Shown one piece after another: positions 6,297-64,000 of a stretch of DNA of 64,000 nucleotides. Source of the DNA: a virus; IMG/VR virus record IMGVR_UViG_3300025030_000076, positions 1 through 64,000 of that record. One strand, written 5' to 3'. The position numbers and the translations under genes are program-made. The notes under the pieces are model-generated. The model was not told the origin of the DNA, did not search any database, and saw nothing but the letters and a program-made list of their open reading frames with translations. Positions within the stretch are counted from its first letter, which is position 1; every line of letters begins with the position of its first letter.

Positions 6297-6919
6297 GCAA
6301 GCTCCATAATCATCTGCTGTTGTGCCTCTGCAATGCGCTTCTCTGCAATAGCGAAATACTTAGGCGAAATCTCAATGCCTGTAAAATCACAACCTAATTG
6401 CGCCGCAGCTACGCCCGTGCTACCAGACCCCATAAACGGGTCAAGGATAGTTTTGGCCTTCGCAATCTCAATACACCACTTCATAAGCGAAATCGGTTTC
6501 TGTGTTGGATGTAAGCCATTCTCTTTCATCATGGCGGCTCTGGAATAAGTAAAAATCCTCACCGCCTTATCTTGGCTGCTCCAAGCGAGCTCGCCATCCG
6601 CAAGACTAAAATCCCGCTGCCCCTTATCCCACATCAGCCACTGTTGCGACGGCGGCAAACAATCCGAAAAGTAATTACCGCCCCAAATAATTACAACCTT
6701 TCCAATTCTCAGCAACTGGTCAAAATGCTCTCTTGTTGGTCGCCACTTATCCCAATCACCATCGGGACGGAAATCGCGCCAGCCGTTCTTAGGATTGCGC
6801 CCCCCGCCGTTTATGTAGTTGATTCCATACGGCGGGTCAGTAATCACAGCATCCACGCTCTTATCAGCCAGCGTTGGCAATATCTCAAGGCAGTCGCCCA
6901 GTCGTAAGTCAATCGTCAT
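6293..6919 (-). CDS. DNA N6A/N4C methyltransferase (beta class)
   Basis: DPPY, HPTQKP and DPFMGSGST motifs. Confidence 0.92.
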   Translation of the reverse strand: MTIDLRLGDCLEILPTLADKSVDAVITDPPYGINYINGGGRNPKNGWRDFRPDGDWDKWRPTREHFDQLLRIGKVVIIWGGNYFSDCLPPSQQWLMWDKGQRDFSLADGELAWSSQDKAVRIFTYSRAAMMKENGLHPTQKPISLMKWCIEIAKAKTILDPFMGSGSTGVAAAQLGCDFTGIEISPKYFAIAEKRIAEAQQQMIMELA

Positions 6920-7662
6920 TCCGCCACCGCCTCCGGCTCTCCTGTGTTATGAAAATCGCTCACGCTATCCCAGGCGATAAAATCTGCGCTGGATGTGGGA
7001 ATATCGCCAGCTACATGACCTGCTATACAGGAGCGGTCTACAAACGCTTCATACCCGGCTTGCCGCGCGTACTCGTAGAAGCGACGATCTTCCCCGCCGC
7101 CCGAAGTCTCGTTGTCGCAGGCGAACCACAGGCCGTCTCCCTGGTCGGGAACTTTTGCGCGGATGTCCTCAAGCACAGTCCGGTGTATTAGCGTGCAGGC
7201 GGTTGCGGTGAAGCCGACAGAGACAAGCGCATCGTCCGGGCAGGGGTCTATTAGGAACGGCCCGAACTTGATCCACTCTTTGTGGTCGTAGAACCAATCA
7301 CGCGTATCATTGATCCGCATCACATAATGGCCCTCATCGCCGTCGTAGGACTTCCAAATCTGCGGGACGACCGGGTTATGTCTCATGAACACTAGCGCCG
7401 ATATGAGAGGCTTATCCCAGGACAAAAGGCGCGTAAGTGTTTCAGGGACAAATACAACATCGTGGTGAGTGCTGAACATCCATTCGGCGTCGGTTGCGAG
7501 AAACTCCCGCACAATATCGTTCCAGATGACGCGAACCGATCCCGCGCCGCTCTGTCTAAATGTCCGCTTTGCGCCCTCGGGCAACAGCAGGTTTACCCAC
7601 GAGTGGACGCACGACCACGGAGGCGGCGCGCCAGATGAGGGAACCCAGTGGAATATGTGCAA
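6916..7662 (-). CDS. Glycosyltransferase-like protein (GT-A fold)
   Basis: FLATDAEWMFSTHHD, TACTLIHRTVLE, GED..F..A..AGY..VD....GH pattern. Confidence 0.65.
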   Translation of the reverse strand: MHIFHWVPSSGAPPPWSCVHSWVNLLLPEGAKRTFRQSGAGSVRVIWNDIVREFLATDAEWMFSTHHDVVFVPETLTRLLSWDKPLISALVFMRHNPVVPQIWKSYDGDEGHYVMRINDTRDWFYDHKEWIKFGPFLIDPCPDDALVSVGFTATACTLIHRTVLEDIRAKVPDQGDGLWFACDNETSGGGEDRRFYEYARQAGYEAFVDRSCIAGHVAGDIPTSSADFIAWDSVSDFHNTGEPEAVAE

Positions 7663-8162: not shown

Positions 8163-10247
8163 TTAGCTGGCCTTGTTGGTCAGGTAATAGAATGCTTCGC
8201 TTTGAAGCACTCCGCCACCGCGGAAGATCGACGCAAAGATGCCGATCTGCCCGGTCGCCATGTACAGGTACGGATTGCGCTGTACGACCATGCCCGGCTT
8301 CTCGACTACCGCGTAGTAGGAGAAGTTGCCGAACACAATACACTTTGCCGATGCTGTGGTATATGGTTCAAGGTCGTCGTCGATGACGGCCTTGTAGCCG
8401 AAAAAGTCGCCATCCTGCGGGGTCTGCACGTAAGCAAACGGGACCGCGGACGTTCCACCGCTGCCCTTGAGATACCACTTGGTCACATTCGCCATGAGCA
8501 TGGCGGACTCGCTTGGGACGTTGTACCCGCCGCCGAGATAGCCGATGAGCGCGGAGAGTTCCGAAGGCAGAATGATGTCGGTCGTGGCGGTCGTATTTGC
8601 AACCGTCGCGCCGGTCACGATACCCTCAGGCTGTGCCGTGCCTGTACCTGTGGTGAAGATGGTGTTCTCGGTGTTGGCAACTGCGCGCCCAAGAGCATTG
8701 GTAAACCAGGCTTCCCAGTTCGTGCCGTTGTACATCAAGAATTCTTCGTTCATCTTGGTCAATTTGGTGTACTTGTACAGGATGAGGTCTTTCTGTGATA
8801 CGGTTCCCTCATTCTCATCGTACGTGCCAGCCTCAGCCGTCAAAATAAAATCGGTCAGGCTGGTATTCTCACGCGGGACCAACAGATGATCGGAAGGGGT
8901 CGTCAGGAACGTGCAAGGGACTTGCCGCGCCCATGACATGATATCGCGCTTGGCGATGATCTGGTTGTACAAGGGATCGGGAACCAGGAACCCACCGCTT
9001 GCTCCGGTCGTGATGTTCCAGGCGGCCTTGCCTGCCTTGATGTTGTCGAAAGACGAATCAGGTCGGAGCAGCCCTTGATTTTCCTGCCCGGTCTTGAGCC
9101 AGGACTTGAATGCGCCGATGCCATCGTTGTCATCATCGGTCGGCTCAGTGGGGTGGTAGAAAGTCTGCGGCCCGTGCTCTTTCAACTCCTCAACGGCCTT
9201 TTTGTACCCGGCGTCCTCTGCGGCCTTCAGTTCTGCCGCCCTCTGCGCTTCCGCCTGGGATTTCGCTTCGCGCTCTGCAAGCGCGTCAGCGACCGCCTTA
9301 TCTACGGCGGATTTGATTTCTAACTCTTCCATGATGTTCTCCCTTTGTTTGGTAACAGGTTGATTGGTTTGTTTGTTTTGGTTTGGTTGGTTATCCTCCT
9401 CAACGGGCAACGCCGCATGAGAAGTTAGTAACGATTTAATTGGCAGTATCTGATTGGTCTTGCGGAACTCTGCCGGATGCGGGGTAAGCGACGCGTCCAG
9501 ACCTAAGCGCCAGCGCGTGACTTCCCACACGCCGTTCTTGATTGCTTTGCGGTCTACAAGATGCGATGCAGTTCCAGACGACCAGGCTAATTTCCCCGCA
9601 AGCCCCAGCTCCGCGATTGTCTTTTCGTACTCATTACGCGCTTCGATCACCACCTCGGCAAACACTCCAACGTCATCAATGGCGAGTGTCGCTTTATTGG
9701 ATAGCGGCTCTGTGTATTTCACTTCAATGTTGTTATGTTTCTTGACGCGGATCGGTAAACGGTGGTTAAACCATGTATCGGATTGTTTGGCGTCGCCGAA
9801 GTCGGTATTTTTCGTGAAGTAATCGCCTTCCAGGTCTGGATTTTTTGAATCCCCGAAGCGGATCAGATAACCCCCTAATTTGACCGCGCCGCCGTCCAAT
9901 GACGTGGCTTTGACCGCATCGCCGGGGTAGATATATTCCTCATCCAGCGATTTACCCTCCATCATAGGAATTTCACCCCCTGGCTTTTCACACTCAGCGC
10001 CGTTTTCCACCATGATGTCATGCACGGTCTGGAACGCCTCTGTTTCTTTGCGCGTGTGCCGCGCGCCGATTTTCAGGAAGTGCTTGACCGCATCTTCCAC
10101 AGACATCCCATAGAACGACTTCTTCTCCCCCCATATGCTCATGCAAGCGGCGGCGGCTTCGTCCTGTTCTTTCCCCTCTTCCAGCATGGCAGGCATACAA
10201 GCCCCCATCCACTTATCTTTATCGTCGTATTCCGATACGTTCGGCAT
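8163..10247 (-). CDS. Prohead protease-major capsid protein ORF (HK97 fold), probable internal capsid start at 9332
   Basis: DLEGDYF/NH/WSSG/DASLTPHPAE protease-like motifs; GGFLVP, GTGTAQPEGI, IVFGNFSYY capsid motifs. Confidence 0.88.
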   Translation of the reverse strand: MPNVSEYDDKDKWMGACMPAMLEEGKEQDEAAAACMSIWGEKKSFYGMSVEDAVKHFLKIGARHTRKETEAFQTVHDIMVENGAECEKPGGEIPMMEGKSLDEEYIYPGDAVKATSLDGGAVKLGGYLIRFGDSKNPDLEGDYFTKNTDFGDAKQSDTWFNHRLPIRVKKHNNIEVKYTEPLSNKATLAIDDVGVFAEVVIEARNEYEKTIAELGLAGKLAWSSGTASHLVDRKAIKNGVWEVTRWRLGLDASLTPHPAEFRKTNQILPIKSLLTSHAALPVEEDNQPNQNKQTNQPVTKQRENIMEELEIKSAVDKAVADALAEREAKSQAEAQRAAELKAAEDAGYKKAVEELKEHGPQTFYHPTEPTDDDNDGIGAFKSWLKTGQENQGLLRPDSSFDNIKAGKAAWNITTGASGGFLVPDPLYNQIIAKRDIMSWARQVPCTFLTTPSDHLLVPRENTSLTDFILTAEAGTYDENEGTVSQKDLILYKYTKLTKMNEEFLMYNGTNWEAWFTNALGRAVANTENTIFTTGTGTAQPEGIVTGATVANTTATTDIILPSELSALIGYLGGGYNVPSESAMLMANVTKWYLKGSGGTSAVPFAYVQTPQDGDFFGYKAVIDDDLEPYTTASAKCIVFGNFSYYAVVEKPGMVVQRNPYLYMATGQIGIFASIFRGGGVLQSEAFYYLTNKAS

Positions 10248-10687
10248 TTATCCCTCTGCGTATTAAACGCAAAAACCGGCTGCTCTCCTTCTCTTTCGAG
10301 AAAAGAACAACCGGCTCAAAGTCTAACGGTTAGTTATTGGCTGTGCGCTTCTGTTACACAGTAGGGCGCGTCGCCTGGGCATTCCTGCCTGCAAACATTA
10401 TAGACGATTTGTTCTATTTATGCAAGGTCTTACTCCAACACTCTTTGCATTCGCGGCGGTGCCTGTCCAGCGCCCGCCAACGGTGACGGTCGTACAAGCC
10501 CCAAGCGACGGCGCAAAGGTGGATAAGTGTCACAATGTTAGCACAATTATTCTGTTTCATGTTATAATATCTACGTCACACGCGGCGGGTTATTTTTTCG
10601 CCACAAAGAGCCGTCTCTTTCCCAAACTCGCGCGTGTGACAACAAGCGAAAAAACAGGAAGGAGGCGGCTCTTTGTGAAGGTGTCCT

Positions 10688-11137
10688 ATGGATTACAACA
10701 AATATATTGCGTCTAAAGAGTGGGACGAAAAACGTAAAGCCAGGAAGAAACTAGACGGGTATCGTTGCCGCCTGTGTGATGAGGACGGGACACACTATCA
10801 ATTGGAGGTACACCATCGTCCATCTGCTTATGCAAAAATTCCAAACGAATCAATCGAAGATGATCTAATAACGGTTTGCTCCCGTTGCCATAACCTCATT
10901 ACGGACGTAATCCGTGAAGATAGATATGGACGACTGGAACACGAACCCACAACGATAACGACCAACATTCAAATAAGACAGGAGATATATCATGGCTTGG
11001 AAAACACTAACATACAAACTGAACTCATCCGCCCCGCTGATAATGCACAACGGGCAGACGGCAGACCCAACAAACAAGTGGTCGAAGTTAATCAAACAGA
11101 TTTCATCCAAACGCGCAAAGACAGACGCGGATCATGA
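10688..11137 (+). CDS. HNH endonuclease
   Basis: YIASKEW...DGYRCRLC...LEVHH...DLITVCSRCH; C-terminal tail overlaps next gene by 146 nt. Confidence 0.88.
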   Translation: MDYNKYIASKEWDEKRKARKKLDGYRCRLCDEDGTHYQLEVHHRPSAYAKIPNESIEDDLITVCSRCHNLITDVIREDRYGRLEHEPTTITTNIQIRQEIYHGLENTNIQTELIRPADNAQRADGRPNKQVVEVNQTDFIQTRKDRRGS

Positions 11138-11573
11138 GGAAATGGCGCGCCTTGAATTTATGGCGGGCTTGTATCTTGATGAGTCTGGCCCCGTCCTGCC
11201 CGCGTACATGATCGAAGCAACAATCTTGGGAGGCGCTAAGAAATCCAAAGAGGGGCAGACTTCAAAGTCTGGTTATTTTTGTCTGGAACATGCGCCGCTT
11301 GAATATGCTGGACCGCGTACAGCTAATGAATTATGGGATGATGAGCAATTCCGTTTTAGTTCTATTGTTCGCGTACAGACTTCCCGTGTTTCACGGATGC
11401 GTCCCATCTTTCGAGAATGGTCTGCCATAGTTACTCTTAATGTGGAAGATACACTAGTCAATCCCGCACAGGTTGACAGATGGCTTAATGCCTCTGGCTC
11501 TCAGGTTGGTTTAGGTGACTGGCGTCCGCAGTATGGACGCTTTACTTCCGAACGCGTGAATGGTCACAAGTAA
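10992..11573 (+). CDS. Stand-alone Cas7/RAMP-like RNA-binding protein
   Basis: N-terminal SAPLIMHN strand, RMRPIFREW, C-terminal Gly-rich loop GSQVGLGDWRPQYGRF typical of RAMP folds; no other cas genes. Confidence 0.7.
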   Translation: MAWKTLTYKLNSSAPLIMHNGQTADPTNKWSKLIKQISSKRAKTDADHEEMARLEFMAGLYLDESGPVLPAYMIEATILGGAKKSKEGQTSKSGYFCLEHAPLEYAGPRTANELWDDEQFRFSSIVRVQTSRVSRMRPIFREWSAIVTLNVEDTLVNPAQVDRWLNASGSQVGLGDWRPQYGRFTSERVNGHK

Positions 11574-11658
11574 GGCCCGGCTGGGCGTGGCGTGGTATGG
11601 TGCGGTAGGTTCTGGTTTGGCACGGCTTGGTTAGGCGGGGTGAGGTACGGTAGGGAGC
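11574..11658 (+). ncRNA. GGY-NN pentamer array, candidate guide RNA for the upstream RAMP protein
   Basis: ggcCC ggcTG ggcGT ggcGT ggtAT ggtGC ggtAG gttCT ggtTT ggcAC ggcTT ggtTA ggcGG ggtGA ggtAC ggtAG ggaGC, starting immediately after the stop codon. Confidence 0.8.
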
Positions 11659-11665
11659 AGAGAGA

Positions 11666-12361
11666 TTACTTATCTAGCAATCTCTCTGTTTTTTCTGCAT
11701 CTACTGGCACGTAACAAGGCATTGGGTCTTTGCCATTCTCGACAACTATTTCTGACTTTGAGTTATTATCCTTGATAATCTTTTTTGCCAATTCAAGCAT
11801 CGTGATCGGCGTAATGCCTCCGATGTCGTAGCATTCGCCGCGCTCGCCATGCAGTAACACAGCCCACATTCGCCGCGCCATATCTTCGCCGCTCATATAT
11901 GTTCTAATAGTATTTCCATCCCCAAATATTCTCAGTGGCTCGCCTTTTCTTGCCGCATTTTCAAATGCTACTATCGCGTGATCTGCTGATAGCCTTTCCC
12001 CATGAAATGCAAACAACCGACAAACGACCACATCGACGCCGCTATCCAGGCACTCTTTTTCCCAATCGAGTTTATTCTGCCTGTACTCGGTATCATTCTC
12101 ATCGTGATAGACAATACCGCTCGAAGCATACAGCACGCGGATACCGAATGGCTGTGCATATTCCAGAACCTCATACGGCGAGATATTCGCCAGATGCACG
12201 ATGTAATCCCAGGTCATCCATTTCCAGTGCCGGAGTTCGTAGTCGCTTTTGCCGATGTAACTGATACGTAAATCAGGCGGGGCGGTTTGCCGCATCCAAA
12301 AGCCACAGAAGCCTGTACCGCCTACGACTAAAACTTTATCCATTATCAGTTCCATCTCCAC
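11666..12361 (-). CDS. NAD-dependent epimerase/dehydratase (extended SDR)
   Basis: VLVVGGTGFCG, YASSG, YRQNK, RLFAFHG, GDGNTIRTY. Confidence 0.88.
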   Translation of the reverse strand: MEMELIMDKVLVVGGTGFCGFWMRQTAPPDLRISYIGKSDYELRHWKWMTWDYIVHLANISPYEVLEYAQPFGIRVLYASSGIVYHDENDTEYRQNKLDWEKECLDSGVDVVVCRLFAFHGERLSADHAIVAFENAARKGEPLRIFGDGNTIRTYMSGEDMARRMWAVLLHGERGECYDIGGITPITMLELAKKIIKDNNSKSEIVVENGKDPMPCYVPVDAEKTERLLDK

Positions 12362-28330: not shown

Positions 28331-28993
28331 GTTACCGTGTGTCCGGTGTCAGTCCTGGTCATGATGTAATTATAGGGAGGCACGTCCTCATCAGCGCAGG
28401 TGGTTGCGGGCTTCCAGAGGTCGTACTGCCTACGCATCATTAGCCAGGGCAGGACGTAGGCGGAGAGAAGGAGGCCGAGCAGGAAGGGGAGGATGCGTTT
28501 CATTTATATTTCATGCTTTCGACAAGTATAGTTATAACAAGCATTCCGAAGAGCCACAAACGGCAGCAAATCATTCGCATAACTGAACATCATTACAGCA
28601 CCGCCTCCGCATGACGAGCAGACGAAATCGCAAGGGTCACGCCACACGATAATCGTTTCCTCACCACAGCAATCACATTGATGCCATTCGCCACGCCGCA
28701 TTCAGCCTCACTCACTCGCGCCCATGTCCTGCTCACCATACAACGACAAGCGCCTGTCGGTTTCGTCGCCTGGATATGACTTGACTGTTACACGAAATCG
28801 CCTCCCGCCTACGTCATGAACGTGGTCATATGGCAGCGGGTCCAGATGCTGAGCAACCATCCGGGCTAGAAACTGAGCAGTCTCTTTGACAATGGACGTT
28901 CGGACGGTATCGGCTTCGCGGTCAGTCATTCAGCCTCTAAAATTAGAACAGATGTACATGACAAATGTCATACTTTTTTTAAGGTTGTGTCTA

Positions 28994-52978: not shown

Positions 52979-54857
52979 CGGCGTTGCTGCCCACATCGTC
53001 GTATTGCAGGGTACTCGCGCCGGGAGATAAATCCAGCCATTCGGCGCGGTCGGTGGATAGCGTCACATTGACCCGCGAGCCGTCTGAGAGATACGCATCC
53101 TTAACTTCGCAGTCAATTGTCACCGTCTCATTCAGGAAGCAAGGCACGGCGCACTTAATATATTCCGTGCTTGTATTGTTGGTGATCGTAGCATCGAAGT
53201 AATACGCCGCCGCCTCAGCCCCTACCGCAATGGTTGGCAGGTTGGAACTCGAAAAGGTGACGGTTACCGTGTCGAATTGAGCCAGTGCCATCTCGCTGAT
53301 GGCAGATGACAGCAGGCCATCGATTACAAAGCGGATCGCGGAGGGGTAGGGAGATGCAAGGTTGGCAGTCGTGGGGCCAAAACTCTGCCAGGAATAAGTA
53401 ACGGTCGGTTCGGCCTGGTTGTCAGCCGTGAACCATACGGCATTTGTCTGGAGATATTGAAGCCCTACAATGGCAGGCCACGAGCCACTCATATACTTAT
53501 CACCCGAAAACAAAACAGTCGTGATCGTGGCGGGGTGGGAGAATATCCAATCCAGCGTACCTGTCTCATTCTGTACCTGGAAGTCCGCACTCCCTATCAA
53601 TGCCAGCCCCAGGGATGTGGACGGGTCAGCAAATGTATTATCCGGCGCGGTATAGACGTATGACAGGCCTGTTCGGGATGATAATACCTCCCCTTTCCAC
53701 ATGCCCGTGCGTGCGCCGGTTGCCTGAAAATAGTTAGTAAGCACCCATGCCCCGTTTGTGGACGCGAGTGAGCACATCGGCTTGTTATCATTGTCCACAT
53801 CCGGGGCGGTCAATGTGCTATCCCCGTAGAGTATCCAGATGTCATGCTCGATCCAGCGTACAGTTTTCGGCGCGGTGTGCGCCGCGATGGTCGTATCTTT
53901 TTTGGTACGTGTTACACCTGTCAATTGATAGGTTACCAGATTGGCGCCTGTAAATGTAAATGCCTCCGAATCGATCAGCACGACCTTGTTGACCGCCGCT
54001 GCCATCGCGTGTAGAAATTCCAGGTTAGCTTTTGTTTTTGATAGCGTGATGGTCGTGATCGCCCCGCTGCCCGCTATGCTGGTATTCGTCGTCCCTTCAC
54101 GGCGCGGCCCCAGGTTTAGATTGACCCAACATTTCGTCGTTGCCGTATCCATGTCCTGAAGCCATCTATCTACAAAGACCCCATCCACAAGCACCAGGAA
54201 ATCATCCCCGTCTGCCTGCATCTTGGCAGTGGTGAGTGTCGCCGTATCCAGCCCGCCATTAGTAATGTCCAGCGGCGCAATATAGGATATATCCATATTG
54301 TTATAAATCGGTATCCAGCGCCGATAACTCAGCCCGCCCGTTTTCGCGCTGGTGGGGGTCAGGGTCAGCTTCGGCCCGATCTTGCGGTTACCTGCGTTGG
54401 TGATCGCCTGCGTCTGCCCGGATGCCGTTACACTCCAACTGGTATCGGTCGCCGTGACAAGTTTCCAGTATGGATACTCGATCTGGAATAAGACCATGAA
54501 GGAATTTTTATTCGTTCCCTCATTTCGGACGTCGCGTACAAAGCCGGTCACGTACCACTGCGTTCCGCTTGCTCCATTCTCCGCAATCAGATTATGACGC
54601 TGCCCGTCCTCAAAATTGAAATACTGCTTGAGTAGTTCCCGATTGGTGTCAATATCCTGTCCCGCTGCAATCCTCACCCGGATTATAAGAGACTGCGGAT
54701 CTGCTACGATCCCCGATACATAGGGATAGTTATCTGCGCGCGGAACGGTAACGACGTTGCCGTGTATATTGACCTTTGAGCCGGGTGGGAAATCGGAATA
54801 GAACGGCGAGCCGTTGTTGATGCTAATCCCGTTCCACGTCAATAGAAGCAGATTCAT
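52941..54857 (-). CDS. Distal tail (evolved Dit-like) protein
   Basis: Directly after tape measure; PYW, ITNAGN..P, WLDLSPG motifs with a large insertion; homologue begins at window position 51. Confidence 0.75.
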   Translation of the reverse strand: MNLLLLTWNGISINNGSPFYSDFPPGSKVNIHGNVVTVPRADNYPYVSGIVADPQSLIIRVRIAAGQDIDTNRELLKQYFNFEDGQRHNLIAENGASGTQWYVTGFVRDVRNEGTNKNSFMVLFQIEYPYWKLVTATDTSWSVTASGQTQAITNAGNRKIGPKLTLTPTSAKTGGLSYRRWIPIYNNMDISYIAPLDITNGGLDTATLTTAKMQADGDDFLVLVDGVFVDRWLQDMDTATTKCWVNLNLGPRREGTTNTSIAGSGAITTITLSKTKANLEFLHAMAAAVNKVVLIDSEAFTFTGANLVTYQLTGVTRTKKDTTIAAHTAPKTVRWIEHDIWILYGDSTLTAPDVDNDNKPMCSLASTNGAWVLTNYFQATGARTGMWKGEVLSSRTGLSYVYTAPDNTFADPSTSLGLALIGSADFQVQNETGTLDWIFSHPATITTVLFSGDKYMSGSWPAIVGLQYLQTNAVWFTADNQAEPTVTYSWQSFGPTTANLASPYPSAIRFVIDGLLSSAISEMALAQFDTVTVTFSSSNLPTIAVGAEAAAYYFDATITNNTSTEYIKCAVPCFLNETVTIDCEVKDAYLSDGSRVNVTLSTDRAEWLDLSPGASTLQYDDVGSNAVTVHVIHRDRTL

Positions 54858-57043
54858 ACGCCGCCGCCTAATTGCCCGCTGGTCGCTGCGATGAACGGGT
54901 TGGGATAAATGCAGTCATAAGCAATTTCTCCCCACGAGCCGACGTTGATCGTCGCGCCCGCGAAGTATTGATTGACGACCGTTCCCGTTCCGCTGCCAGT
55001 CCCGCTGCCAGTCCCGCTGCCTGTCCCACCACCAATCGGGATGGGTGTGGGATTGGTCAAGCTGCTGATGTCGATACCAAGCAGGTTCAATATCGGCTCG
55101 AAGGGGGCTAGTAATAATGCAACGATGTTTTGAATTGTATTTATCAACCAGGCCGTTGCAGCGGTAAGACCAGCCACCAATCCCGCAACGATGTTGACGC
55201 CAATTTCCATAAAGACGGTTGATGGACTGGAAATGCCTAGCCATTTCTTTATAGGGTCGATGATTTTCTCATGTACCCATTTGTCAGCATCCCAAGACCA
55301 ATCGAAATCCACAGCCTTTTGCCAACCTTGAGAGATAGCTTCTCCTATTTGTCGCCAATCATCAGTGCCAACAATAAAATCCACTATTTCTACAAAGAGA
55401 AAGGTGAGCATATCCATGAAACCTGTCGCGATTTCTCCAAGAGTGTCTAATGAAGCAAGAACGACATAACTCCACATGTCTGCAAAGCCGATACCGATTG
55501 CTGCCCAGTCAGCATTAGCAATCATATTTGGAATACTTAATACAAGATAGCTCCACATATCGGCAAAGCCAATACCGATTGCAGTCCAATTTTCCTGGCT
55601 TGTAACTTGATCTAACATTCTTTGCCAGAAAACCTTCCAACTAGGAAAGAAATCTGCCAATCCCATAGCACCAAAGAACCAGTCGCTGATTGCCTGACCA
55701 ATAGCAGGAACGGCTTCCGATTCATTGCTCTCTATACCTGCTCCAAATGCTGCAAGTAGCGCATCTCCGAACGCATCACCAGATGCCGTCCAATCGTGAA
55801 GTTTTATCGCCTCCGCCAGCTTAACGTCAATCTCGTCCGTCAAATCAACAACCCAAGTAGCAATATCTTCTATTGGTATACTTGCGAGAACAAAGCCAAT
55901 TACACCTATAACATCACCCTCACCAAAAGCATCTTTTAAATCTAAAATATACTCAAGAACTCCAGCTAATGGACTGCCAGAACCACCTAACCTGTCTGCC
56001 GCTGTAATCAATGCGCCCCAGAGCGTATCACCATTATCAAGAGCCTGCTGAATAATTCTCAATGCTGTTCCAAGATCATAGAAGATTGGATTTACATCTT
56101 TCCACGATTGCATCGCAGCACCAAGATCATATAATTTGACTATATCGCCGCTTACCAGTTTCATAAAAATATCAACTAATTCTGCAAACCCCTCACCTGC
56201 GATTGCAGCAATTCTCCCAATATCTTCCAGGATTGGACGCAAAGTACCGCCTTCTGAGACAGCCTTACCAAACCATTTAGCAAGATCGGCAATAGCAAAA
56301 ATGACAGTTCCAAACGCCTCCTGAAATGGTTCACCAATAGCGACCATGATGTCATCGAAGTATCGGGGAAATGAGCGCAATACTTTTCCAGGCTCTTCCA
56401 TTGCAGCGGCATACGCGCCTGCAATCCCTACGCCTGCTTCCAATACCTCATTCAATGCTATCTGCTGCTTTTCGGCAGTGGTCAGGCTTTCTGTTGTTCT
56501 ATCGTTTTCATCCGCCCATTCTTTGTATGCCAATTGTAGATCAACGACAATCCCGGCATGGCGCAATACAAGCGGGTTGAGAGTTTCAATACCATATACA
56601 ATATCTTTTAGAGTCTGACTTGAATTTTGTCCTGCAATAACTGCTGCATCCTGAGCAATACGAGCAATGTCAGTAGCATACGCTAAATCGAGTTCTGCAC
56701 CAATAAACGCCGCGATTGTTGTTTCGGCAATTCCCGCTTCGATACCCATACTGCGAATTGATGTCGCTATCTTTTCAAGATATAACGCCGGAATTCCAGC
56801 AGTTTCTCCTAAAACCTGATTGACTACTCTAAGTTCATCTACGCGTGCGGCGGTAAGGATGGCTTCCTGTCCAAACGCAATAACCGGCGTAAGCACAGCA
56901 TCAATTGCACCGGCAGCCAAGTCAAGAGCCGATTTGATACCAGTGACGATATTTCCGAAGTCGCCGAATGATCCAACTATTCCCCCCATAACTCCCGAAA
57001 ATTCGTCCTTCCCCGTTATCACTATCTCTACTTCGGCAGCCAT
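54854..57043 (-). CDS. Tape measure protein (copy B)
   Basis: 729 aa; shares termini with 48-2045. Confidence 0.9.
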   Translation of the reverse strand: MAAEVEIVITGKDEFSGVMGGIVGSFGDFGNIVTGIKSALDLAAGAIDAVLTPVIAFGQEAILTAARVDELRVVNQVLGETAGIPALYLEKIATSIRSMGIEAGIAETTIAAFIGAELDLAYATDIARIAQDAAVIAGQNSSQTLKDIVYGIETLNPLVLRHAGIVVDLQLAYKEWADENDRTTESLTTAEKQQIALNEVLEAGVGIAGAYAAAMEEPGKVLRSFPRYFDDIMVAIGEPFQEAFGTVIFAIADLAKWFGKAVSEGGTLRPILEDIGRIAAIAGEGFAELVDIFMKLVSGDIVKLYDLGAAMQSWKDVNPIFYDLGTALRIIQQALDNGDTLWGALITAADRLGGSGSPLAGVLEYILDLKDAFGEGDVIGVIGFVLASIPIEDIATWVVDLTDEIDVKLAEAIKLHDWTASGDAFGDALLAAFGAGIESNESEAVPAIGQAISDWFFGAMGLADFFPSWKVFWQRMLDQVTSQENWTAIGIGFADMWSYLVLSIPNMIANADWAAIGIGFADMWSYVVLASLDTLGEIATGFMDMLTFLFVEIVDFIVGTDDWRQIGEAISQGWQKAVDFDWSWDADKWVHEKIIDPIKKWLGISSPSTVFMEIGVNIVAGLVAGLTAATAWLINTIQNIVALLLAPFEPILNLLGIDISSLTNPTPIPIGGGTGSGTGSGTGSGTGTVVNQYFAGATINVGSWGEIAYDCIYPNPFIAATSGQLGGGV

Positions 57044-57160
57044 GTGATATAATCCTTGTAAATCAATTCGTCTGGGCTAGCAGGCGTTTCCATGTTAAAA
57101 TCCATATACCTTTCGTGTCGCGCTAGCCCGCGATGCGAGAGGTATTTTGTTTGGAGTACC

Positions 57161-57835
57161 ATGTCACTAATCGAAATTCACTGCGAACAATGTGGAAAGC
57201 ATTTTCAAGGGCGCAGCGATAGGATAATTCGCTTTTGTTCGCGCGCCTGCTGACGTAATTCCCAAATAGAAACAAGAGTGTGCGTTGTATGTAAAAAGCC
57301 TTTTCGGGTAAGGCCATCATATGAAACATCCACTTGTTCCAGAGAGTGCAAGAAGAAAAATTATTCATCCATTCACCTTACAGATAGGCTTAGAGAAATT
57401 ATTAGCCGCGTAGGAAAAGCCAACAAGGGACGCACCCGCCCTCACAAGCCACTTTTGGAAAAGATTTGCGAACAATGCAAAACGATTTACTATGTTCCAG
57501 GAAAACAAAAGGCAAGCCGCTATTGTTCTACTAAATGCTGGTACAACCACATTCGACAAGACCCTGTTAAGCACCCGAATTGGCGCGGAGGAGAATACGA
57601 TCATAACTATGGTCGAAACTGGTTTCAGCAAAAACGCTCCGCACGCAAGCGCGACAAGTACACATGCCAGAACTGTGGCATTACTGAAAGAGAATATGGT
57701 CGTCACTTGGATGTCCATCACAAAGTTCCTTTTAGAAATTTCGGTATCGAAAGATATAAAGAGGCCAACGTTCTCAAAAACCTAATTTCTCTTTGCAGAG
57801 GTTGCCATATGATTGCCGAGCGTGGCGTTTATTGA
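57161..57835 (+). pseudogene. Zn-finger HNH endonuclease with in-frame TGA at 57251-57253 (residual ORF 57278-57835)
   Basis: GGAG-ATG at 57161 is in frame with the HNH ORF; MSLIEIHCEQCGK..FCSRAC*RN; LDVHH..NLISLCRGCH. Confidence 0.7.
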
Positions 57836-57983
57836 TTCCTCATTGCATCTATCTCGCGCTGTTGCCTTGCATTCAATTCATTGATATATAAAGTGAGCCT
57901 TAATTGCCATACATACCGCCGCCAGCGCGACGGTTTTTCGCCTGTGATTTTCCAGGGTAATTGATGCAAAGCGAACGCCAACA

Positions 57984-58364
57984 CTACAACGTCGAACCAT
58001 CCGGGGAGGTCTGCGGGGTCAGGGAATCGACTTCTGAAGTAGAGTTCAATTGACCCCCTTTCGCGTTTGGGATGGTAGATTCCACAAGTGCTTCGCTAAA
58101 TTTGTTGATAGCATCCGCCGCTTCATCCCGGCTCAATTCATCAAATATTGCATACGCTTCGTCTTGCGGAAGGTACTGATTATTTTCGTCAGCCATGAAG
58201 CGACAGGATAGAATCTGGATTTGTTCCAGAAACTCGTCGTTAATATCGTTGCCTTGTGCTTTCAAGCGCCTGAATTTTTGCACCTTTTTTATGTCTTTCC
58301 ACTTCAGGCGCTTCCCTACTGTTTTCGCGTCGAACAAAAACTTAATGTGTATATCCTCAGACAT
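57984..58364 (-). CDS. Tail assembly chaperone (copy B), -1 frameshift extension to ~57829
   Basis: Near-identical to 2213-2593; CCCAAAC at 58065-58071. Confidence 0.8.
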   Translation of the reverse strand: MSEDIHIKFLFDAKTVGKRLKWKDIKKVQKFRRLKAQGNDINDEFLEQIQILSCRFMADENNQYLPQDEAYAIFDELSRDEAADAINKFSEALVESTIPNAKGGQLNSTSEVDSLTPQTSPDGSTL

Positions 58365-58393
58365 TACAAACTACTTTCTCGCGCATTAGCGCG

Positions 58394-59395
58394 TTATGGA
58401 ACTGTTGCCAATTCAACTACAACGATGATCGACCCAGCGGCGGCGGCTGTGGTATCGTACGCAGACACAAACTTACCTGTCACAATATCGTTACCGTTGG
58501 CCTCCCCGATCTTCGAGAAGCTCTCCCAATAGCCGGGGAGATTGATCTTCATCGTCGGGACGCTGTATGTCGTGCCGGGAGTGGCGAATGCCGTCAAACC
58601 TTCGACTTTGACTTGCAGTAGGACAGGCGTTTGTGCGCGCCATAAAACTTTCTGCGCGGCGGCGATTGCGTCATGCTCGAATTCCAAATCACAGGTAACT
58701 ACATAATCCGTTCCCTGTGCAAAAGAGAAGTCGAGCCGCCCGTCTGCGGTATCCTTCGCCTCAATTCCTGATGCAAACTTGAAATTGACGCCCCGCACCG
58801 TATTGGACTTGATCGTCGTTCCAACCGTGCCGCCAATCGCATCTTGATAGATTTTCGTCAATCCGAAATTCATGTTGTTGACAGCCAGCAGGGATAGACC
58901 GGCTGAGAAGGCGCCCAGGGCCGGGGCGCGCCCCTGGATATTCGCCTGCAACTGGTATGCGGTGCGCCCGTTGCCGGATAGCGTCCAGTCCTTGACGAAA
59001 CAATACGCCATGCGCTCAACTTCGTTATCATCCCCGCCCTCGATGGAATAAGTTTTGATCGCGTTGCCTGCGGTAGTGGGGAACGCATAGGTATAGATGT
59101 AGTCAGTCCCTGCGCCGTCCTGGGAACCGGCAACGGTTTTTACACTCATTTCAAGGATGTGCAGGAGACCCTCAAATGTCGCGGGGGTTTGGCTAATTGC
59201 CAGCGTCCCACCCTTCATGGGTACATTCGTGCGGGTCGTGCCGCTGATAATCCCGATGTCCTCACTGACACGTTGCACCTGGATATTGTCCAGGATCGTC
59301 CCGATGCCGCGAAAAATAAATGTCGCGGATGAGGTTGTCCCGGCTGTTGCCTCCCTGTAAAACTGGAGCTTTCTCAAACTTCTACGACCAGCCAT
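58394..59395 (-). CDS. Major tail tube protein (copy B)
   Basis: Homologue of 3013-4014. Confidence 0.75.
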   Translation of the reverse strand: MAGRRSLRKLQFYREATAGTTSSATFIFRGIGTILDNIQVQRVSEDIGIISGTTRTNVPMKGGTLAISQTPATFEGLLHILEMSVKTVAGSQDGAGTDYIYTYAFPTTAGNAIKTYSIEGGDDNEVERMAYCFVKDWTLSGNGRTAYQLQANIQGRAPALGAFSAGLSLLAVNNMNFGLTKIYQDAIGGTVGTTIKSNTVRGVNFKFASGIEAKDTADGRLDFSFAQGTDYVVTCDLEFEHDAIAAAQKVLWRAQTPVLLQVKVEGLTAFATPGTTYSVPTMKINLPGYWESFSKIGEANGNDIVTGKFVSAYDTTAAAAGSIIVVVELATVP

Positions 59396-59601
59396 TATTC
59401 ACCTTCCTTAGCCGTTTTGATTTTCTTCGGCTGTTCTATTTTTGGTTTCTCATACAGGCCGCTTGCAAGCATCCCGGCCTCATCTATTCCAAGTTCCTTC
59501 CAGAGTTCCGCACGCTCGGCGAAATCTTCGTCCATCAGGTCGCGGGCGGGTATGTGTATGAGCGCGTCACCCCGGCCAATGTAATGCAATTTAATTGCCA
59601 T
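59395..59601 (-). CDS. Small conserved virion-module protein (copy B)
   Basis: Homologue of 4014-4223. Confidence 0.65.
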   Translation of the reverse strand: MAIKLHYIGRGDALIHIPARDLMDEDFAERAELWKELGIDEAGMLASGLYEKPKIEQPKKIKTAKEGE

Positions 59602-59611
59602 GTTTGTCTCC

Positions 59612-60019
59612 TTACAATCCTACGCGGCGCGTCACCATCGTGATCTCCTCTTCGATTGCCTTCGGAAGTTTCGCGACTTCCTCCTCCTGCACGTCGCGCA
59701 GAAGGTTCCAGCGCCCTTCGTGCATCCAGGCTTGTTCCAAGCCATAGGCGTTACCCACGACATATTTTGTATATGGTGTATCGTTGCGCGTGGTATAGCC
59801 GTTTGTGTTCGGTATAATCATCCAACCACCGCCGAGCCTGCCTGTGCGGATATATCTCTGCCCCGGTCGCTCAGGCGGGTAAATCTTCATCCGGCGGACA
59901 ATCGCCTGTGATGTCTGATAGATTTGCAAGCGCCCGATTTTCGGGATCTCCGCCGACAAATCCTGCAAGCCTCGGCGCACAATATCCGCGTTGTTGATCT
60001 GGATGGATAATTGCGTCAT
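59612..60019 (-). CDS. Neck/tail-completion protein (copy B)
   Basis: Homologue of 4407-4814. Confidence 0.65.
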   Translation of the reverse strand: MTQLSIQINNADIVRRGLQDLSAEIPKIGRLQIYQTSQAIVRRMKIYPPERPGQRYIRTGRLGGGWMIIPNTNGYTTRNDTPYTKYVVGNAYGLEQAWMHEGRWNLLRDVQEEEVAKLPKAIEEEITMVTRRVGL

Positions 60020-60447
60020 AGGTTTATCTTCTGTTTCACATTCTCAAGCATGGCTCGGTAGCCGACGCAATCCACGCTAGAGTAGATATATACGGGCAGA
60101 AATTCCCATCGCAAAATCCCAAAAGTGTCAATCGAGCCGTCAAAGAAGCGGCTGGTGGTCGTGATTTCGGTTAGGAGCGCCGTGTCAACCAGGTCTACAA
60201 TCGGCAGGAGTGCGGCGATGTTCTGCGCAAGGTCGGTATGCGGCGTCAGGATGTCAACGGCAATTGTCGCAAGGTGTTGCATCGTCCCGGTCTCGCTGAT
60301 CTCGGTCATTGAGGTCATAAGATACGTCAGTGCAAAAATCCGTTCGTTGATATTTTCCTGCGGCGTCGCGGGCGCGGCTCCGATGCCCGCCACCGCCGCC
60401 ACGACCTCAGCAACTTCCGTTACCGCTGTGGTATAGTCCTGCGTCAC
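60016..60447 (-). CDS. Putative tail terminator (copy B)
   Basis: Homologue of 4811-5242. Confidence 0.5.
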   Translation of the reverse strand: MTQDYTTAVTEVAEVVAAVAGIGAAPATPQENINERIFALTYLMTSMTEISETGTMQHLATIAVDILTPHTDLAQNIAALLPIVDLVDTALLTEITTTSRFFDGSIDTFGILRWEFLPVYIYSSVDCVGYRAMLENVKQKINL

Positions 60448-61388
60448 GTAATCCTCACATAAGGACAGAGGAGCTTTTCAACATCCGGGTCGAGCGCCGG
60501 GATGGTTAGCGTAATCGTGCCAACGCTGGACGCCCCGGCCTGTCCAAGCGCGGTGTTGAAGCGTTTATATTCGCGATTGCTTTGCAGGATACAAGCCAGC
60601 ACAACAGTTTTCGGAACCGACGCCCAGCCGAATGAGGCGGTGACTTTCACGCCCTTTTTTGTGCCAGGAAACGAGTAATCTCCCTCAGGTGTGGTTTCTA
60701 TCATCTGGTAAGGCCAGCCATCCAGCGTCGCGTTGAATGATGTCAAGTCGTAGTCTGTCGTCGCCCAAGTCGTTTCATACGTTCTGTCCCCGTCCTCATC
60801 TGTGACAAGCGTCAGCCCGCTTGAGGTTGAGATGTCATCCACGAACATCAGGTCGCCTTCGTCAGCGGTGTAATATCTCGTTTCGGATGCGGAGAAGAAG
60901 CGGCGGGCGCATTTGTTGTCTATCAGGCGCGAGACGGCTTCGATGATGGTTTCCAAAATCTCATCATGGGTCGTGTTCGAGAAATTCAGCACGTCAGACG
61001 ATTTGAGTTGCGCCAGCGTGACGTAGCCGTTTGTCATCCCCGTTCCGGCGGTCGTATTCGTGGATGTTGGCGCGGCGGTCAGGCCGGTACAAGTGCCGTT
61101 TGCAATGGCAATATTCAGCGTGTCATCATTGGCGACCGCGATATGTTTTGTCAGGACTACATTCGCGCCGCTGCCGGATACCAAAAACAGCGCCGCCACA
61201 TCCACATCGAAGGCCAGCGCCGTGCGTATCAGCCCGCCAACAATGGAGGCGGTATCTGCTGAAGTGACGGCGACTGAGATAGCCTTCGGCGTGTTTGCCA
61301 TGCCGAGCGCGGTCACGGTCACAGTAGCATTCCCCGAGCCGGTGACTGTCCCGACGACGGTCGCGGTTTCAACTTGTTTTGTGGTCAT
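60444..61388 (-). CDS. Head-tail adaptor (copy B)
   Basis: Homologue of 5352-6296. Confidence 0.75.
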   Translation of the reverse strand: MTTKQVETATVVGTVTGSGNATVTVTALGMANTPKAISVAVTSADTASIVGGLIRTALAFDVDVAALFLVSGSGANVVLTKHIAVANDDTLNIAIANGTCTGLTAAPTSTNTTAGTGMTNGYVTLAQLKSSDVLNFSNTTHDEILETIIEAVSRLIDNKCARRFFSASETRYYTADEGDLMFVDDISTSSGLTLVTDEDGDRTYETTWATTDYDLTSFNATLDGWPYQMIETTPEGDYSFPGTKKGVKVTASFGWASVPKTVVLACILQSNREYKRFNTALGQAGASSVGTITLTIPALDPDVEKLLCPYVRIT

Positions 61389-61570
61389 GCTGTTCCCATA
61401 GTGGTAAGTAGCACGCCTAGTATTTGGTTAAGTTCTTTTATGGCTTCATCGCGTCCACATGAACAATGCCGATCACAGCTAAATACCCAAAAAGTACAAT
61501 GCTTCGAATGGTATTTCAGCATCTTGTCAAGCGCCTTTGTTTTGGGTGCTTTAGTTTTCTTGGTTGTCAT
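61385..61570 (-). CDS. Small Cys/His-rich protein, copy B-specific
   Basis: Occupies the slot held by the methyltransferase in copy A. Confidence 0.55.
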   Translation of the reverse strand: MTTKKTKAPKTKALDKMLKYHSKHCTFWVFSCDRHCSCGRDEAIKELNQILGVLLTTMGTA

Positions 61571-62306
61571 TTATTACAGGCTCTCCCGTATTGTGAAAAT
61601 CACTCACGCTATCCCAAGCAATGAAATCGGCGCTGGATGTGGGAATGTCGCCAGCCACATGACCAGCTATACAGGAGCGGTCTACAAACGCTTCGTAACC
61701 AGCAGCCCGCGCGTATTCGTAGAAGCGCCGATCCTCCCCGCCGCCTGAAGTCTCGTTGTCGCAGGCAAACCACAAGCCATCACCCTGGTCGGGTACTTTG
61801 GCGCGGATGTCCTCAAAGACAGTCCGGTGTATCAGCGTGCAGGCGGTCGCGGTGAAGCCGACAGAGACAAGCGCATCGGGGGGGCAGGGGTCTATCAAGA
61901 ACGGCCCAAACTTGATCCACTCTTTATGATCGTAGAACCATTCGCGAGTATCATTGATTCTCATCACATAATGGCCTTCATCTCTATCGTAGGATTTCCA
62001 AATCTGTGGGACGACCGGGTTATGTCGCATGAACACCAGCGCCGATATAAGGGGCTTATCCCAGGACAGTAATCGCTTCAATGTTTCAGGGACGAAAACA
62101 ACATCGTGGTGCGTCGAGAATATCCATTCGGCGTCGGTTGCGAGAAACTCCCGCACAATATCATTCCAGACGACACGAACCGAGCCAGCGCCGCTCTGCT
62201 TAAATGTCCGCTTTGCGCCATCAGGCAAGAGCAGGTTTACCCACGAGTGAACGCACGACCACGGAGGCGGCGCGCCAGACGAGGGAACCCAATGGAATAT
62301 GTGCAA
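61551..62306 (-). CDS. Glycosyltransferase-like protein (copy B)
   Basis: Homologue of 6916-7662. Confidence 0.65.
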   Translation of the reverse strand: MHIFHWVPSSGAPPPWSCVHSWVNLLLPDGAKRTFKQSGAGSVRVVWNDIVREFLATDAEWIFSTHHDVVFVPETLKRLLSWDKPLISALVFMRHNPVVPQIWKSYDRDEGHYVMRINDTREWFYDHKEWIKFGPFLIDPCPPDALVSVGFTATACTLIHRTVFEDIRAKVPDQGDGLWFACDNETSGGGEDRRFYEYARAAGYEAFVDRSCIAGHVAGDIPTSSADFIAWDSVSDFHNTGEPVINDNQEN

Positions 62307-62364
62307 GATAAAACGCTTTCCGGGGGAGGCAATTGCTCGCCTCCCCCATTACTTATCAGTAGTG

Positions 62365-62802
62365 TTAGACGGTTACGACTTCGATGCTGGATGCTGTTGG
62401 CGGACGATTGATGCCGTTGTACAGTTCCACCACGCACGAATGCGGGACGGCTGTCGAGAGCAGTGAGCCACCGGAGACAAGCAGCCAGGGCGTACCCGCT
62501 GAAATAGGTACATCCACTTCCAGCGTGACCGAGGTGCTCGATAGCACGCCGGAGGTCACAGCGGCCAGAGATGCGCTTGCGATAGCAGCGTAAGTTGCGC
62601 CGGATGTGGACGCCTGCCAGGGTCCAATACCCGCCGAAAGTGCGGCGGTCGTTGCGGCGCCGTTACCGAAATTGAAGATGAAGTGCGCGCGGGAGTATCC
62701 GGTCGCGTCGACCTTTGTTCCGACCAGCGCACCAACTTGTCCGCCGCTGGCTGCTACTGCAACCATCGACTTCTGGACATCAGGATTCTTGTTGCGTGAC
62801 AT
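62365..62802 (-). CDS. Putative capsid decoration protein (copy B)
   Basis: Homologue of 7714-8151. Confidence 0.6.
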   Translation of the reverse strand: MSRNKNPDVQKSMVAVAASGGQVGALVGTKVDATGYSRAHFIFNFGNGAATTAALSAGIGPWQASTSGATYAAIASASLAAVTSGVLSSTSVTLEVDVPISAGTPWLLVSGGSLLSTAVPHSCVVELYNGINRPPTASSIEVVTV

Positions 62803-62813
62803 GTCATCACCTC

Positions 62814-63977
62814 TTATGCAGCGTTGGTCAGATAGTAGAATGCTTCGCTCTGAAGTACTCCGCCACCGCGGAAGATAGAGGCGAAGATACCGATTTGCCC
62901 GGTTGCCATGTACAGGTAGGGGTTGCGCTGTACGACCATGCCCGGCTTTTCCACTACTGCGTAGTAGGAGAAATTGCCGAACACGACGCACTTGGCTGAG
63001 GCTGTGGTATACGGGTCAAGGTCGTCATCAATGACAGCCTTGTAGCCGAAGAAATCGCCATCCTGCGGGGTCTGCACGTATGCAAACGGGACAGCCGATG
63101 TTCCGCCACTGCCTTTGAGATACCATTTGGTCTTATTCGCCATGAGCATGGCGGACTCGGACGGCACGTTATACCCGCCGCCGAGATAGCCGATCAGGGC
63201 CGAAAGTTCTGAAGGCAGAATGACATCGGTCGTGGCGGTCGTGTTTGCAACCGTCGCGCCGGTCACGATACCCTCAGGCTGCGCCGTGCCTGTGCCTGTG
63301 GTGTAGATGGTGTTCTCGGTGTTGGCAACCGCACGACCCAGGGCATTGGTAAACCATGCTTCCCAGTTCGTGCCGTTGTACATCAAGAACTCTTCATTCA
63401 TCTTGGTCAGCTTGGTGTACTTGTACAAGATGAGGTCTTTCTGCGATACCGTGCCCTCATTCTCATCGTATGTACCAGCCTCAGCCGTCAGGACGAAATC
63501 GGTTAGCTTGGTGTCTTCACGCGGGACCAACAGGTGATCGGAAGGGGTCGTCAGGAACGTGCAAGGAACCTGCCGCGCCCACGACATAATGTCGCGCTTG
63601 GCGATGATCTGGTTGTACAGGGGATCAGGAACCAGGAATCCACCGCTTGCTCCGGTCGTGATGTTCCAGGCCGCCTTGCCTGCCTTGATGTTGTCGAAGG
63701 ACGAGTCGGGGCGGATCAGCCCTTGATTTTCCTGCCCGGTCTTGAGCCAGGACTTGAATGCTCCGATACCATCGTTGTCATCGTCGGTCGGCTCGGTGGG
63801 GTGGTAGAACTTCTGCGGCCCGTGCTCCTTCAATTCCTCAATGGCCTTTTTGTACCCGGCGTCCTCAGCAGCTTTCAATTCTGCCGCCTTCTGCAATTCC
63901 GCCTGGGTTTTCGCTTCGCGCATTGCAAGCGCGTCTGCGACCGCCTTATCAACGGCGGATTTGATTTCTTCTTCCAT
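62814..63977 (-). CDS. Major capsid protein (copy B; upstream protease part outside window)
   Basis: Homologue of 8163-9332; same GGAG-ATG. Confidence 0.9.
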   Translation of the reverse strand: MEEEIKSAVDKAVADALAMREAKTQAELQKAAELKAAEDAGYKKAIEELKEHGPQKFYHPTEPTDDDNDGIGAFKSWLKTGQENQGLIRPDSSFDNIKAGKAAWNITTGASGGFLVPDPLYNQIIAKRDIMSWARQVPCTFLTTPSDHLLVPREDTKLTDFVLTAEAGTYDENEGTVSQKDLILYKYTKLTKMNEEFLMYNGTNWEAWFTNALGRAVANTENTIYTTGTGTAQPEGIVTGATVANTTATTDVILPSELSALIGYLGGGYNVPSESAMLMANKTKWYLKGSGGTSAVPFAYVQTPQDGDFFGYKAVIDDDLDPYTTASAKCVVFGNFSYYAVVEKPGMVVQRNPYLYMATGQIGIFASIFRGGGVLQSEAFYYLTNAA

Positions 63978-64000
63978 GATGTTCTCCCTTTGTTTGGTAA

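Follow-up and report, generated by a model that had tools for sequence, protein, structure and literature searches.

A phage-borne VIPR cassette whose guide matches an epimerase allele of cassette-free siblings

The cassette between the capsid and epimerase genes

The window analysed here is a stretch of viral DNA of 64,000 nucleotides, corresponding to bases 1-64000 of the 80,305-base IMG/VR record IMGVR_UViG_3300025030_000076. It contains a compact cassette made of a gene for an HNH endonuclease, a vipr gene coding for a stand-alone Cas7-like protein and an array of GGY-NN pentamers, all three on the plus strand. The cassette lies between the major capsid gene and a minus-strand cluster of sugar-nucleotide genes, the last of which belongs to the epimerase/dehydratase family. 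The features of the locus are the following, in window coordinates:

10688-11137, plus strand: HNH endonuclease gene, 149 residues, accessory (vap-like); Pfam PF01844 and many PHROG HNH families
10992-11573, plus strand: vipr gene, 193 residues, stand-alone Cas7/RAMP-like protein; phrog_4652, E 2e-49
11574-11658, plus strand: repeat tract of the vrRNA, with 16 in-phase pentamers (11574-11653) and a degenerate 17th unit, GGAGC (11654-11658)
11584-11643, plus strand: guide units 3-14, the part matching sibling epimerase alleles (six cassette-free alleles agree at 23-24 of the 24 read bases, the resident one at 17)
11654-11695, plus strand: 3' tail of the vrRNA, with a hairpin stem (11657-11667 paired with 11679-11689) followed by a T run
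11666-12361, minus strand: resident NAD-dependent epimerase/dehydratase-family gene (Pfam PF01370), likely start MDKVL at 12343
11990-12037, minus strand: resident (self) allele of the target site, encoding VDVVVCRLFAFHGERL; 18/32 overall, 17/24 in the core
10247-8163, minus strand: major capsid gene

VIPR systems have been described as the association of a Vipr protein with vrRNAs built from alternating GGY and NN motifs, which recognise double-stranded DNA through their NN pairs while one target base, usually the codon wobble position, is skipped per unit (10.64898/2026.04.26.720920). The Vipr protein is a small stand-alone RAMP related to Cas7, with an RRM core, a G-loop and a thumb, and it is accompanied by an accessory vap gene whose function relates to DNA. 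The hallmark of a vrRNA is a run of 9-16 tandem YNNGG/GGY-NN units of variable NN, followed by a structured 3' tail and located beside vipr on its strand, and both an HNH accessory gene and loci with a single vrRNA are mentioned in the same preprint (10.64898/2026.04.26.720920). Structures of the filament and of the R-loop-triplex have been reported (10.64898/2026.04.26.720927), and VIPR has been studied in phage-satellite competition (10.64898/2026.10.15.759431). The present cassette is a phage-borne member of this family, composed of a Vipr protein, a single vrRNA and an HNH partner.

Several lines of evidence concern the protein. An AlphaFold2 model of the vipr product (pLDDT 82) returned Csm3 and type VII Cas7 as top Foldseek matches, with E values down to 2e-5. 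A word-index search identified 645 relatives at E <= 0.001, the best 120 of these 645 being 64-100% identical. By BLASTP, the protein shares 34% identity over 190 aligned residues with gp95 of Felixounavirus wV8 (E 3e-36), whose numbering fits the residues published for SUSP1 Vipr. When positions are placed via wV8 gp95, the vipr product retains, among the residues involved in GGY reading and DNA binding, the equivalents of H17, K33, R39, M72, K82, G87, R138, D177, W178 and R179, those of E71 and K88 being lost. A blastn search of the cassette against GenBank phages returned nothing.

The vipr and HNH genes overlap by 146 nt in different frames (window 10992-11137). This arrangement is shared by 60 of 80 IMG/VR loci, in which an HNH homologue lies directly upstream of vipr and overlaps it, likewise by about 136 nt (tblastn), so that both reading frames are conserved across the overlap. 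Among 25 HNH homologues, C27, C30, H42, H43, C64 and H68 are invariant. GGY-NN arrays are found directly downstream of the vipr homologue in most of the 80 loci and, in 59 related loci, all arrays (179 of 179) lie on the vipr strand, with 0 on the opposite strand. Since no capsid, epimerase or aminotransferase gene was found within 6 kb in the 80 Vipr loci, the cassette occupies different slots in different phages.

The first base of the array directly adjoins the vipr stop codon (11573 to 11574). Fifteen of its 16 pentamers conform to GGY-NN, unit 8 being GTT-CT, and the NN pairs, which constitute the guide, read CC TG GT GT AT GC AG CT TT AC TT TA GG GA AC AG. The hairpin of the tail and the T run after it likely form an intrinsic terminator. 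Folding of the RNA from 11570 to 11705 gave -52.8 kcal/mol (z = -2.97) and, in the predicted fold, the tail stem is able to reach into units 15-17; as a conjecture, this extension may explain why the 3' end of the guide is unmatched in the targets described below. An Rfam search of the window gave no match, and a tRNA search of the window found none. Two other explanations for the pentamer periodicity, titration of a TRAP-like or CsrA-like protein and G-quadruplex DNA, were dropped in view of the Cas7-like model of the protein, its relationship to Vipr and the matching target sites.

The guide and the epimerase alleles

In a sequence-only reading of the window, each NN pair had been taken as codon positions 1 and 2, which yields VVIARLFTFYG(D/E), and it had been proposed that the guide follows an NN-x-NN-x code, blind to wobble positions, directed at the orthologous gene of competing relatives. 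The string was confirmed, and the peptide is the one encoded by cassette-free epimerase alleles. The proposed code is the VIPR rule of a one-nucleotide skip and could be reproduced: when 144 guides were scanned against 1.7 Mb, only skip 1 yielded matches of at least 19/20. Since this code has been published (10.64898/2026.04.26.720920), what had been deduced from the window is real, not new.

The sequence-only reading had started from the resident epimerase gene, where the site (12037-11990) reads:

GTC GAT GTG GTC GTT TGT CGG TTG TTT GCA TTT CAT GGG GAA AGG CTA

Its count of 18/26 over units 3-15 is exact (18/32 overall), and the two synonymous first-position differences it had pointed out, AG versus CG for arginine and CT versus TT for leucine, are present. 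Taken alone, this match is at chance level, because 48% of shuffled NN orders score at least 18/26 somewhere in the window, so that the comparison with shuffled guides turned out against it. The window contains 16 sites reaching at least 18/32, the best of which (21/32) is located on the minus strand at 28773. The sole unusual feature of the resident match is its closeness to the array: it lies 332 nt away, and about 0.01-0.03 such sites are expected within 500 nt. In the core, units 3-14, the resident allele shows 7 mismatches distributed over 6 units.

The allele on which the significance of the guide match rests lies beyond the window. The record holds two segments of roughly 26 kb and about 90% identity, termed A (2-26300) and B (54808-80305), with 28.5 kb of unique sequence between them. 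Rather than a true 80-kb genome, this layout suggests one of about 54.8 kb whose assembly ran past its end and joined two co-occurring strain variants. The corresponding features are:

54808-64000: start of sibling copy B, which continues to 80305 of the record
10280-12022: variant-A-specific block, comprising the cassette and the 3' half of the epimerase gene (self-BLAST of the 80-kb record)

In sibling B, the block 10280-12022 is replaced by 910 nt without vipr, HNH or array. The sequence-only reading had suggested inspecting the B copy of the epimerase beyond the right edge of the window, and the best one-nucleotide-skip match of the guide in the whole record is found there (record 65838-65791, minus strand):

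ATC GAT GTA GTC ATT GCG CGC CTG TTC ACC TTC TAC GGC GAG CGC CTA

This site encodes IDVVIARLFTFYGERL, which includes the decoded peptide VVIARLFTFYGE. It matches 23/32 overall and 23/24 over units 3-14, the sole core difference being AG versus CG, both arginine codons. When 1000 shuffled guides were scored against the 80-kb record, every one stayed at or below 20/24. It is because the predicted orthologous allele matches 23/24, unlike the resident site, that the target assignment is statistically significant. The full 16-unit pattern, allowing up to 3 mismatches, had no match in the own record.

Searching beyond the record, as had also been proposed, led to further in-frame matches in epimerase genes on contigs without an array. 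An exact scan of IMG/VR with units 3-14 retrieved two further sites (L081, 24/24, and L082, 23/24), where about 0.001 chance matches are expected for this pattern by our estimate, and a metagenome scan with units 5-14 retrieved three more (L083, 24/24; L084, 23/24; L085, 23/24). No array was found on contigs L081-L085. Together with sibling B, these sites make six alleles, all of them lying in frame in epimerase orthologues, with the wobble position as the base that is skipped, and encoding VVIARLFTFYG(E/D). Pairwise comparison of the six gives an identity of 98% at the read positions and of 39% at the skipped ones. The predicted target in competing relatives was thus found in sibling B and in five more cassette-free alleles. 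In siblings, the capsid gene comes immediately after the site and shares its strand; in L082, the capsid gene directly follows the epimerase gene and there is no cassette.

The residue read by unit 12, a tyrosine in the decoded peptide, varies among natural alleles (Y, F, S, C or H in P0125-P0129, B, L081-L085 and window 11996-12031), while the surrounding motif, VVIARLFTF-G, is otherwise conserved. Variation of this residue could reflect escape from such targeting.

Both variants are present in the same samples: each of three groundwater runs contains a contig identical to A across the cassette (10153-12074, depth 12-28) as well as a cassette-free variant, about 1.7-2x deeper, in which 10485 is joined to 12026. 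In sibling B, the slot is occupied by a different open reading frame, and the slot between epimerase and capsid genes is therefore variable. This minus-strand frame codes for 89 residues, beginning MGNDNDIENDIEF, and lies at record 64914-65466, outside the window.

Codon alignments show the resident gene to be a mosaic. Its identity to B is 89% as far as alignment position 346 and drops to 54-55% beyond it; with L084, the identity is 92% up to position 342 and again 54-55% thereafter. As the guide footprint spans alignment positions 340-375, the junction falls at its upstream edge. When B and L084 are compared with L081, a change-point is found at 325, in the opposite direction. A protein, P0124, carries a resistant-type C-terminal half (87% identical) joined to a different N-terminal half, and its change-point with A can be placed no closer than about 30 residues upstream of the site, this imprecision arising because the upstream stretch is conserved in all alleles. 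In IMG/VR, no other carrier of the resistant C-terminal half was found. The proposal that the resident allele had been recoded to avoid self-targeting holds in so far as this allele differs from the guide (17/24). The idea of a local recoding does not hold: by comparison of the alleles, the site is the start of a diverged, apparently foreign block which takes in the 3' half of the gene as well as the cassette and ends 32 nt upstream of the capsid start codon.

Guides of related loci

Whether proximity between array and matching site is a general property was addressed with 136 guides from related loci, each scored against its own locus with the arrays masked. The proportions of guides whose best match is at least 16/20, and of those with such a match within 500 nt of the array, were:

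Real guides, one-nucleotide skip: 16.2%; within 500 nt, 6.6%
Shuffled unit order: 3.7%; within 500 nt, 0.3%
Reversed unit order: 4.4%; within 500 nt, 0.7%
Real guides, skip 0: 2.2%; within 500 nt, 0%
Real guides, skip 2: 2.9%; within 500 nt, 0.7%

A score test restricted to the own flanks (±1.5 kb) gave a weak enrichment, the own-locus test with its controls being clearer. One related locus, L055, resembles the present one: nine units of its upstream guide score 18/18 against the gene just upstream in the form carried by L054 and L056. This match is antisense, yet aligned to the wobble positions, and the own allele of L055 has two amino-acid changes at the guide site.

Other observations were made in these loci. 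In L054, L055, L056 and L061 (around 6900-7400), the gene just downstream of the arrays contains the motifs IEIQGG and GYERDARKF, and its product looks, from sequence, like a small endonuclease-like protein. This gene is matched by guides of siblings, as at L061:7218, where the guide at L055:6835 scores 21/24; for the guide at L061:6914, the score against its own allele is 19/24. In the L042 array (L042:6588-6727), units 1-10 decode to DWRPQYGRFT and match at 20/20 the vipr gene of the window near its 3' end (11517-11546), in the region coding for the G-loop; the VIPR of the window is thus itself a predicted target of another VIPR. The same guide also matches the vipr genes of L001 and L004. 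Targeting of one VIPR by another has been described for other clades (10.64898/2026.04.26.720920 and companions).

Downstream of vipr in L005, L006, L007 and L009, conserved structured elements lie between one array and the next, and those of one class hold a tRNA-like T-arm, GGTTCGAnTCC. At L073:2100-2160, a CTGATGAG motif is present, as in hammerhead ribozymes, and such ribozymes have been reported between vrRNAs (10.64898/2026.04.26.720920).

Candidate mechanism, rival explanations and known systems

Collectively, these data make it probable that the cassette carries a VIPR guide aimed at the epimerase gene of its cassette-free sibling, whose effect would be to exclude this sibling and possibly to promote a homing-like spread. 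In such a mechanism, each Vipr protomer would bind one GGY, polymerise along the RNA and present an NN pair, through which two bases out of every three on one DNA strand would be base-paired. Units 3-14 would thereby be complementary to the template strand of the epimerase gene in cassette-free relatives, including the groundwater sibling. By inspection, the guide has coding-strand sense, as the sequence-only reading had noted, and it can therefore pair with the template DNA strand and not with the mRNA. The carrier would probably be spared, its own allele differing at 7 of the 24 read bases. The later steps are inferred, binding being deduced from the published mechanism: the complex would bind the sibling DNA in vivo and, with the HNH protein, block or cut it, excluding the sibling, and a cut sibling repaired from the cassette-bearing genome would receive the cassette along with the altered 3' half of the epimerase gene. 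Two effector steps are conceivable: transcription of the late operon could be obstructed just before the capsid gene, or the conserved HNH protein could cleave. The junction at the footprint, the target adjoining the cassette and the variable slot fit a model of cleavage and repair; they do not prove it. The stronger claim, that HNH, Vipr and vrRNA form an RNA-guided homing element which cuts the allele of the adjacent gene in siblings and whose resistant 3' half is copied along with the cassette during repair, is put forward tentatively. The initial interpretation is supported on the whole, with qualifications regarding the outer units, the mosaic nature of the resident allele and the prior publication of the code.

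Several points weigh against targeting of the sibling with exclusion and homing. Units 1, 2, 15 and 16 are unmatched in all six alleles, and full-length identity is 72-78%, under the published cut-off of 80% (10.64898/2026.04.26.720920). The three runs in which both variants co-occur may be the source of the assembly, and maybe of one campaign, and are not independent of the record. No RNA run is among those listed as holding the locus. The guides of L061, L073 and L028, which have partial matches in their own flanks, gave 0 matches each in exact 10-unit scans of IMG/VR. The conserved motif could also be a recombination hot spot for ordinary reasons. Finally, the VIPR systems characterised so far act by transcriptional silencing (10.64898/2026.04.26.720920), and a match in a bacterial contig, considered below, satisfies the published identity rule.

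The penultimate point leads to the most serious of the rival explanations, which shares the target assignment with the preferred one and differs in the effector step alone. The complex would act as a roadblock in the sibling epimerase gene, the HNH protein would have another role, and the junction would result from ordinary recombination at a conserved motif. Published VIPR repress transcription from either strand and need no nuclease for it (10.64898/2026.04.26.720920, 10.64898/2026.10.15.759431), and the position of the sibling target, immediately upstream of the capsid gene and on its strand, would suit a roadblock. Such silencing without cleavage nevertheless appears rather unlikely: an HNH gene with intact motif overlaps vipr in 60 of the 80 loci, target destruction is expected for the nuclease-carrying VIPR types (10.64898/2026.04.26.720920), and two comparisons place the junction a few bases at most from the edge of the footprint. 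A further explanation would have the vrRNA act on the epimerase gene or late operon of its own genome via the 17/24 site, the guide descending from an older allele. Partial matches in own flanks are indeed enriched across the clade (16.2% against about 3.7% with shuffled guides). Self-regulation is nonetheless very improbable, as disturbed NN pairing abolishes silencing and no self-targets of at least 80% were found among the published systems (10.64898/2026.04.26.720920), and the perfect matches found here are all in cassette-free genomes.

It has also been considered that the true target lies elsewhere. In an AT-rich metagenome-assembled genome of an uncultured bacterium, a site in the segment of an ftsH-like gene coding for the N-terminal membrane segment (L086:498-545, contig CAZMSR010000041.1) scores 28/32 against the guide, without a mismatch in units 5-16 (SFLLIASLFTFYGDTS). 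This score passes the 80% rule, and the site matches units 15-16, which every epimerase allele leaves unmatched and whose joint match has a chance of about 1 in 250; by our estimate, chance alone would produce about 0.2 matches of this quality across the entire genome collection. On the other side, about two chance matches are expected for the 10-unit pattern that was searched, and one was found, and the G+C content of the contig (34.5% against 51% for the phage) makes this bacterium an unlikely host. The six related epimerase alleles, in the gene beside the cassette, match at 23-24/24 and are aligned to the wobble positions. The bacterial match is thus probably due to chance, and there is hardly any likelihood that it represents the true target.

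If targeting of the sibling allele is accepted, several consequences follow. The gapped VIPR code is independently confirmed on environmental DNA, the conservation of read positions (98%) exceeding by far that of skipped ones (39%), and a concrete natural target is provided for the HNH type, which is largely uncharacterised in published work. What goes beyond the three VIPR texts is that the guide is aimed at the adjacent gene in its sibling form, that the allele of the carrier is changed and that the junction lies at the footprint; homing, gene conversion and targets in neighbouring genes are not mentioned in these texts (10.64898/2026.04.26.720920, 10.64898/2026.04.26.720927, 10.64898/2026.10.15.759431). 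Should the homing claim be true, HNH-type VIPR cassettes would spread like free-standing homing endonucleases, with programmable specificity, and the clade-wide excess of imperfect matches beside arrays would be the footprint of this homing life style.

Compared with characterised VIPR, the cassette has the same lone Cas7-like protein, homologous to that of Felixounavirus, the same pentameric GGY-NN RNA with a structured 3' tail and the same targets read with a one-nucleotide skip at codon wobble positions; it is likewise borne by a phage and directed at competing mobile elements. In the characterised systems (type II, SUSP1, P. fulva), the Vap binds DNA and what is silenced are satellites or prophage regulators; the partner here is an HNH protein. 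Published nuclease-bearing types are enriched in host defence islands, whereas this HNH type resides within a phage late operon. Unlike in published VIPR, the guide matches the sibling allele of the adjoining gene and a mosaic junction lies at the footprint.

The cassette is also reminiscent of the backbones of class 1 CRISPR-Cas systems (Cas7/Csm3 filaments), with which it shares the fold, one protomer per period of the RNA repeat and periodic base flipping. In contrast to these systems, it lacks a CRISPR array, Cas1/Cas2 and any further cas genes; its period is 5 nt, made of three fixed and two reading bases, and its guides are hard-wired, not acquired.

A parallel for its proposed life style is provided by the free-standing homing endonucleases of T-even phages (SegF, SegG, MobE, I-TevIII-like HNH and GIY-YIG enzymes), known for intronless homing, or marker exclusion. 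As in these phages, conserved genes flank an inserted nuclease gene, the adjacent gene of insert-free relatives contains the target, the allele of the carrier is polymorphic at the site, and flanking sequence would be co-inherited with the insert. If the HNH protein cuts at the footprint, the cassette would be an RNA-programmed analogue of intronless homing, linking guide-RNA systems to the spread of selfish nuclease genes among phages. It would differ from the T-even enzymes, whose specificity lies in the protein, in that its presumed cleavage and conversion would be directed by a guide RNA held on a Cas7-like filament.

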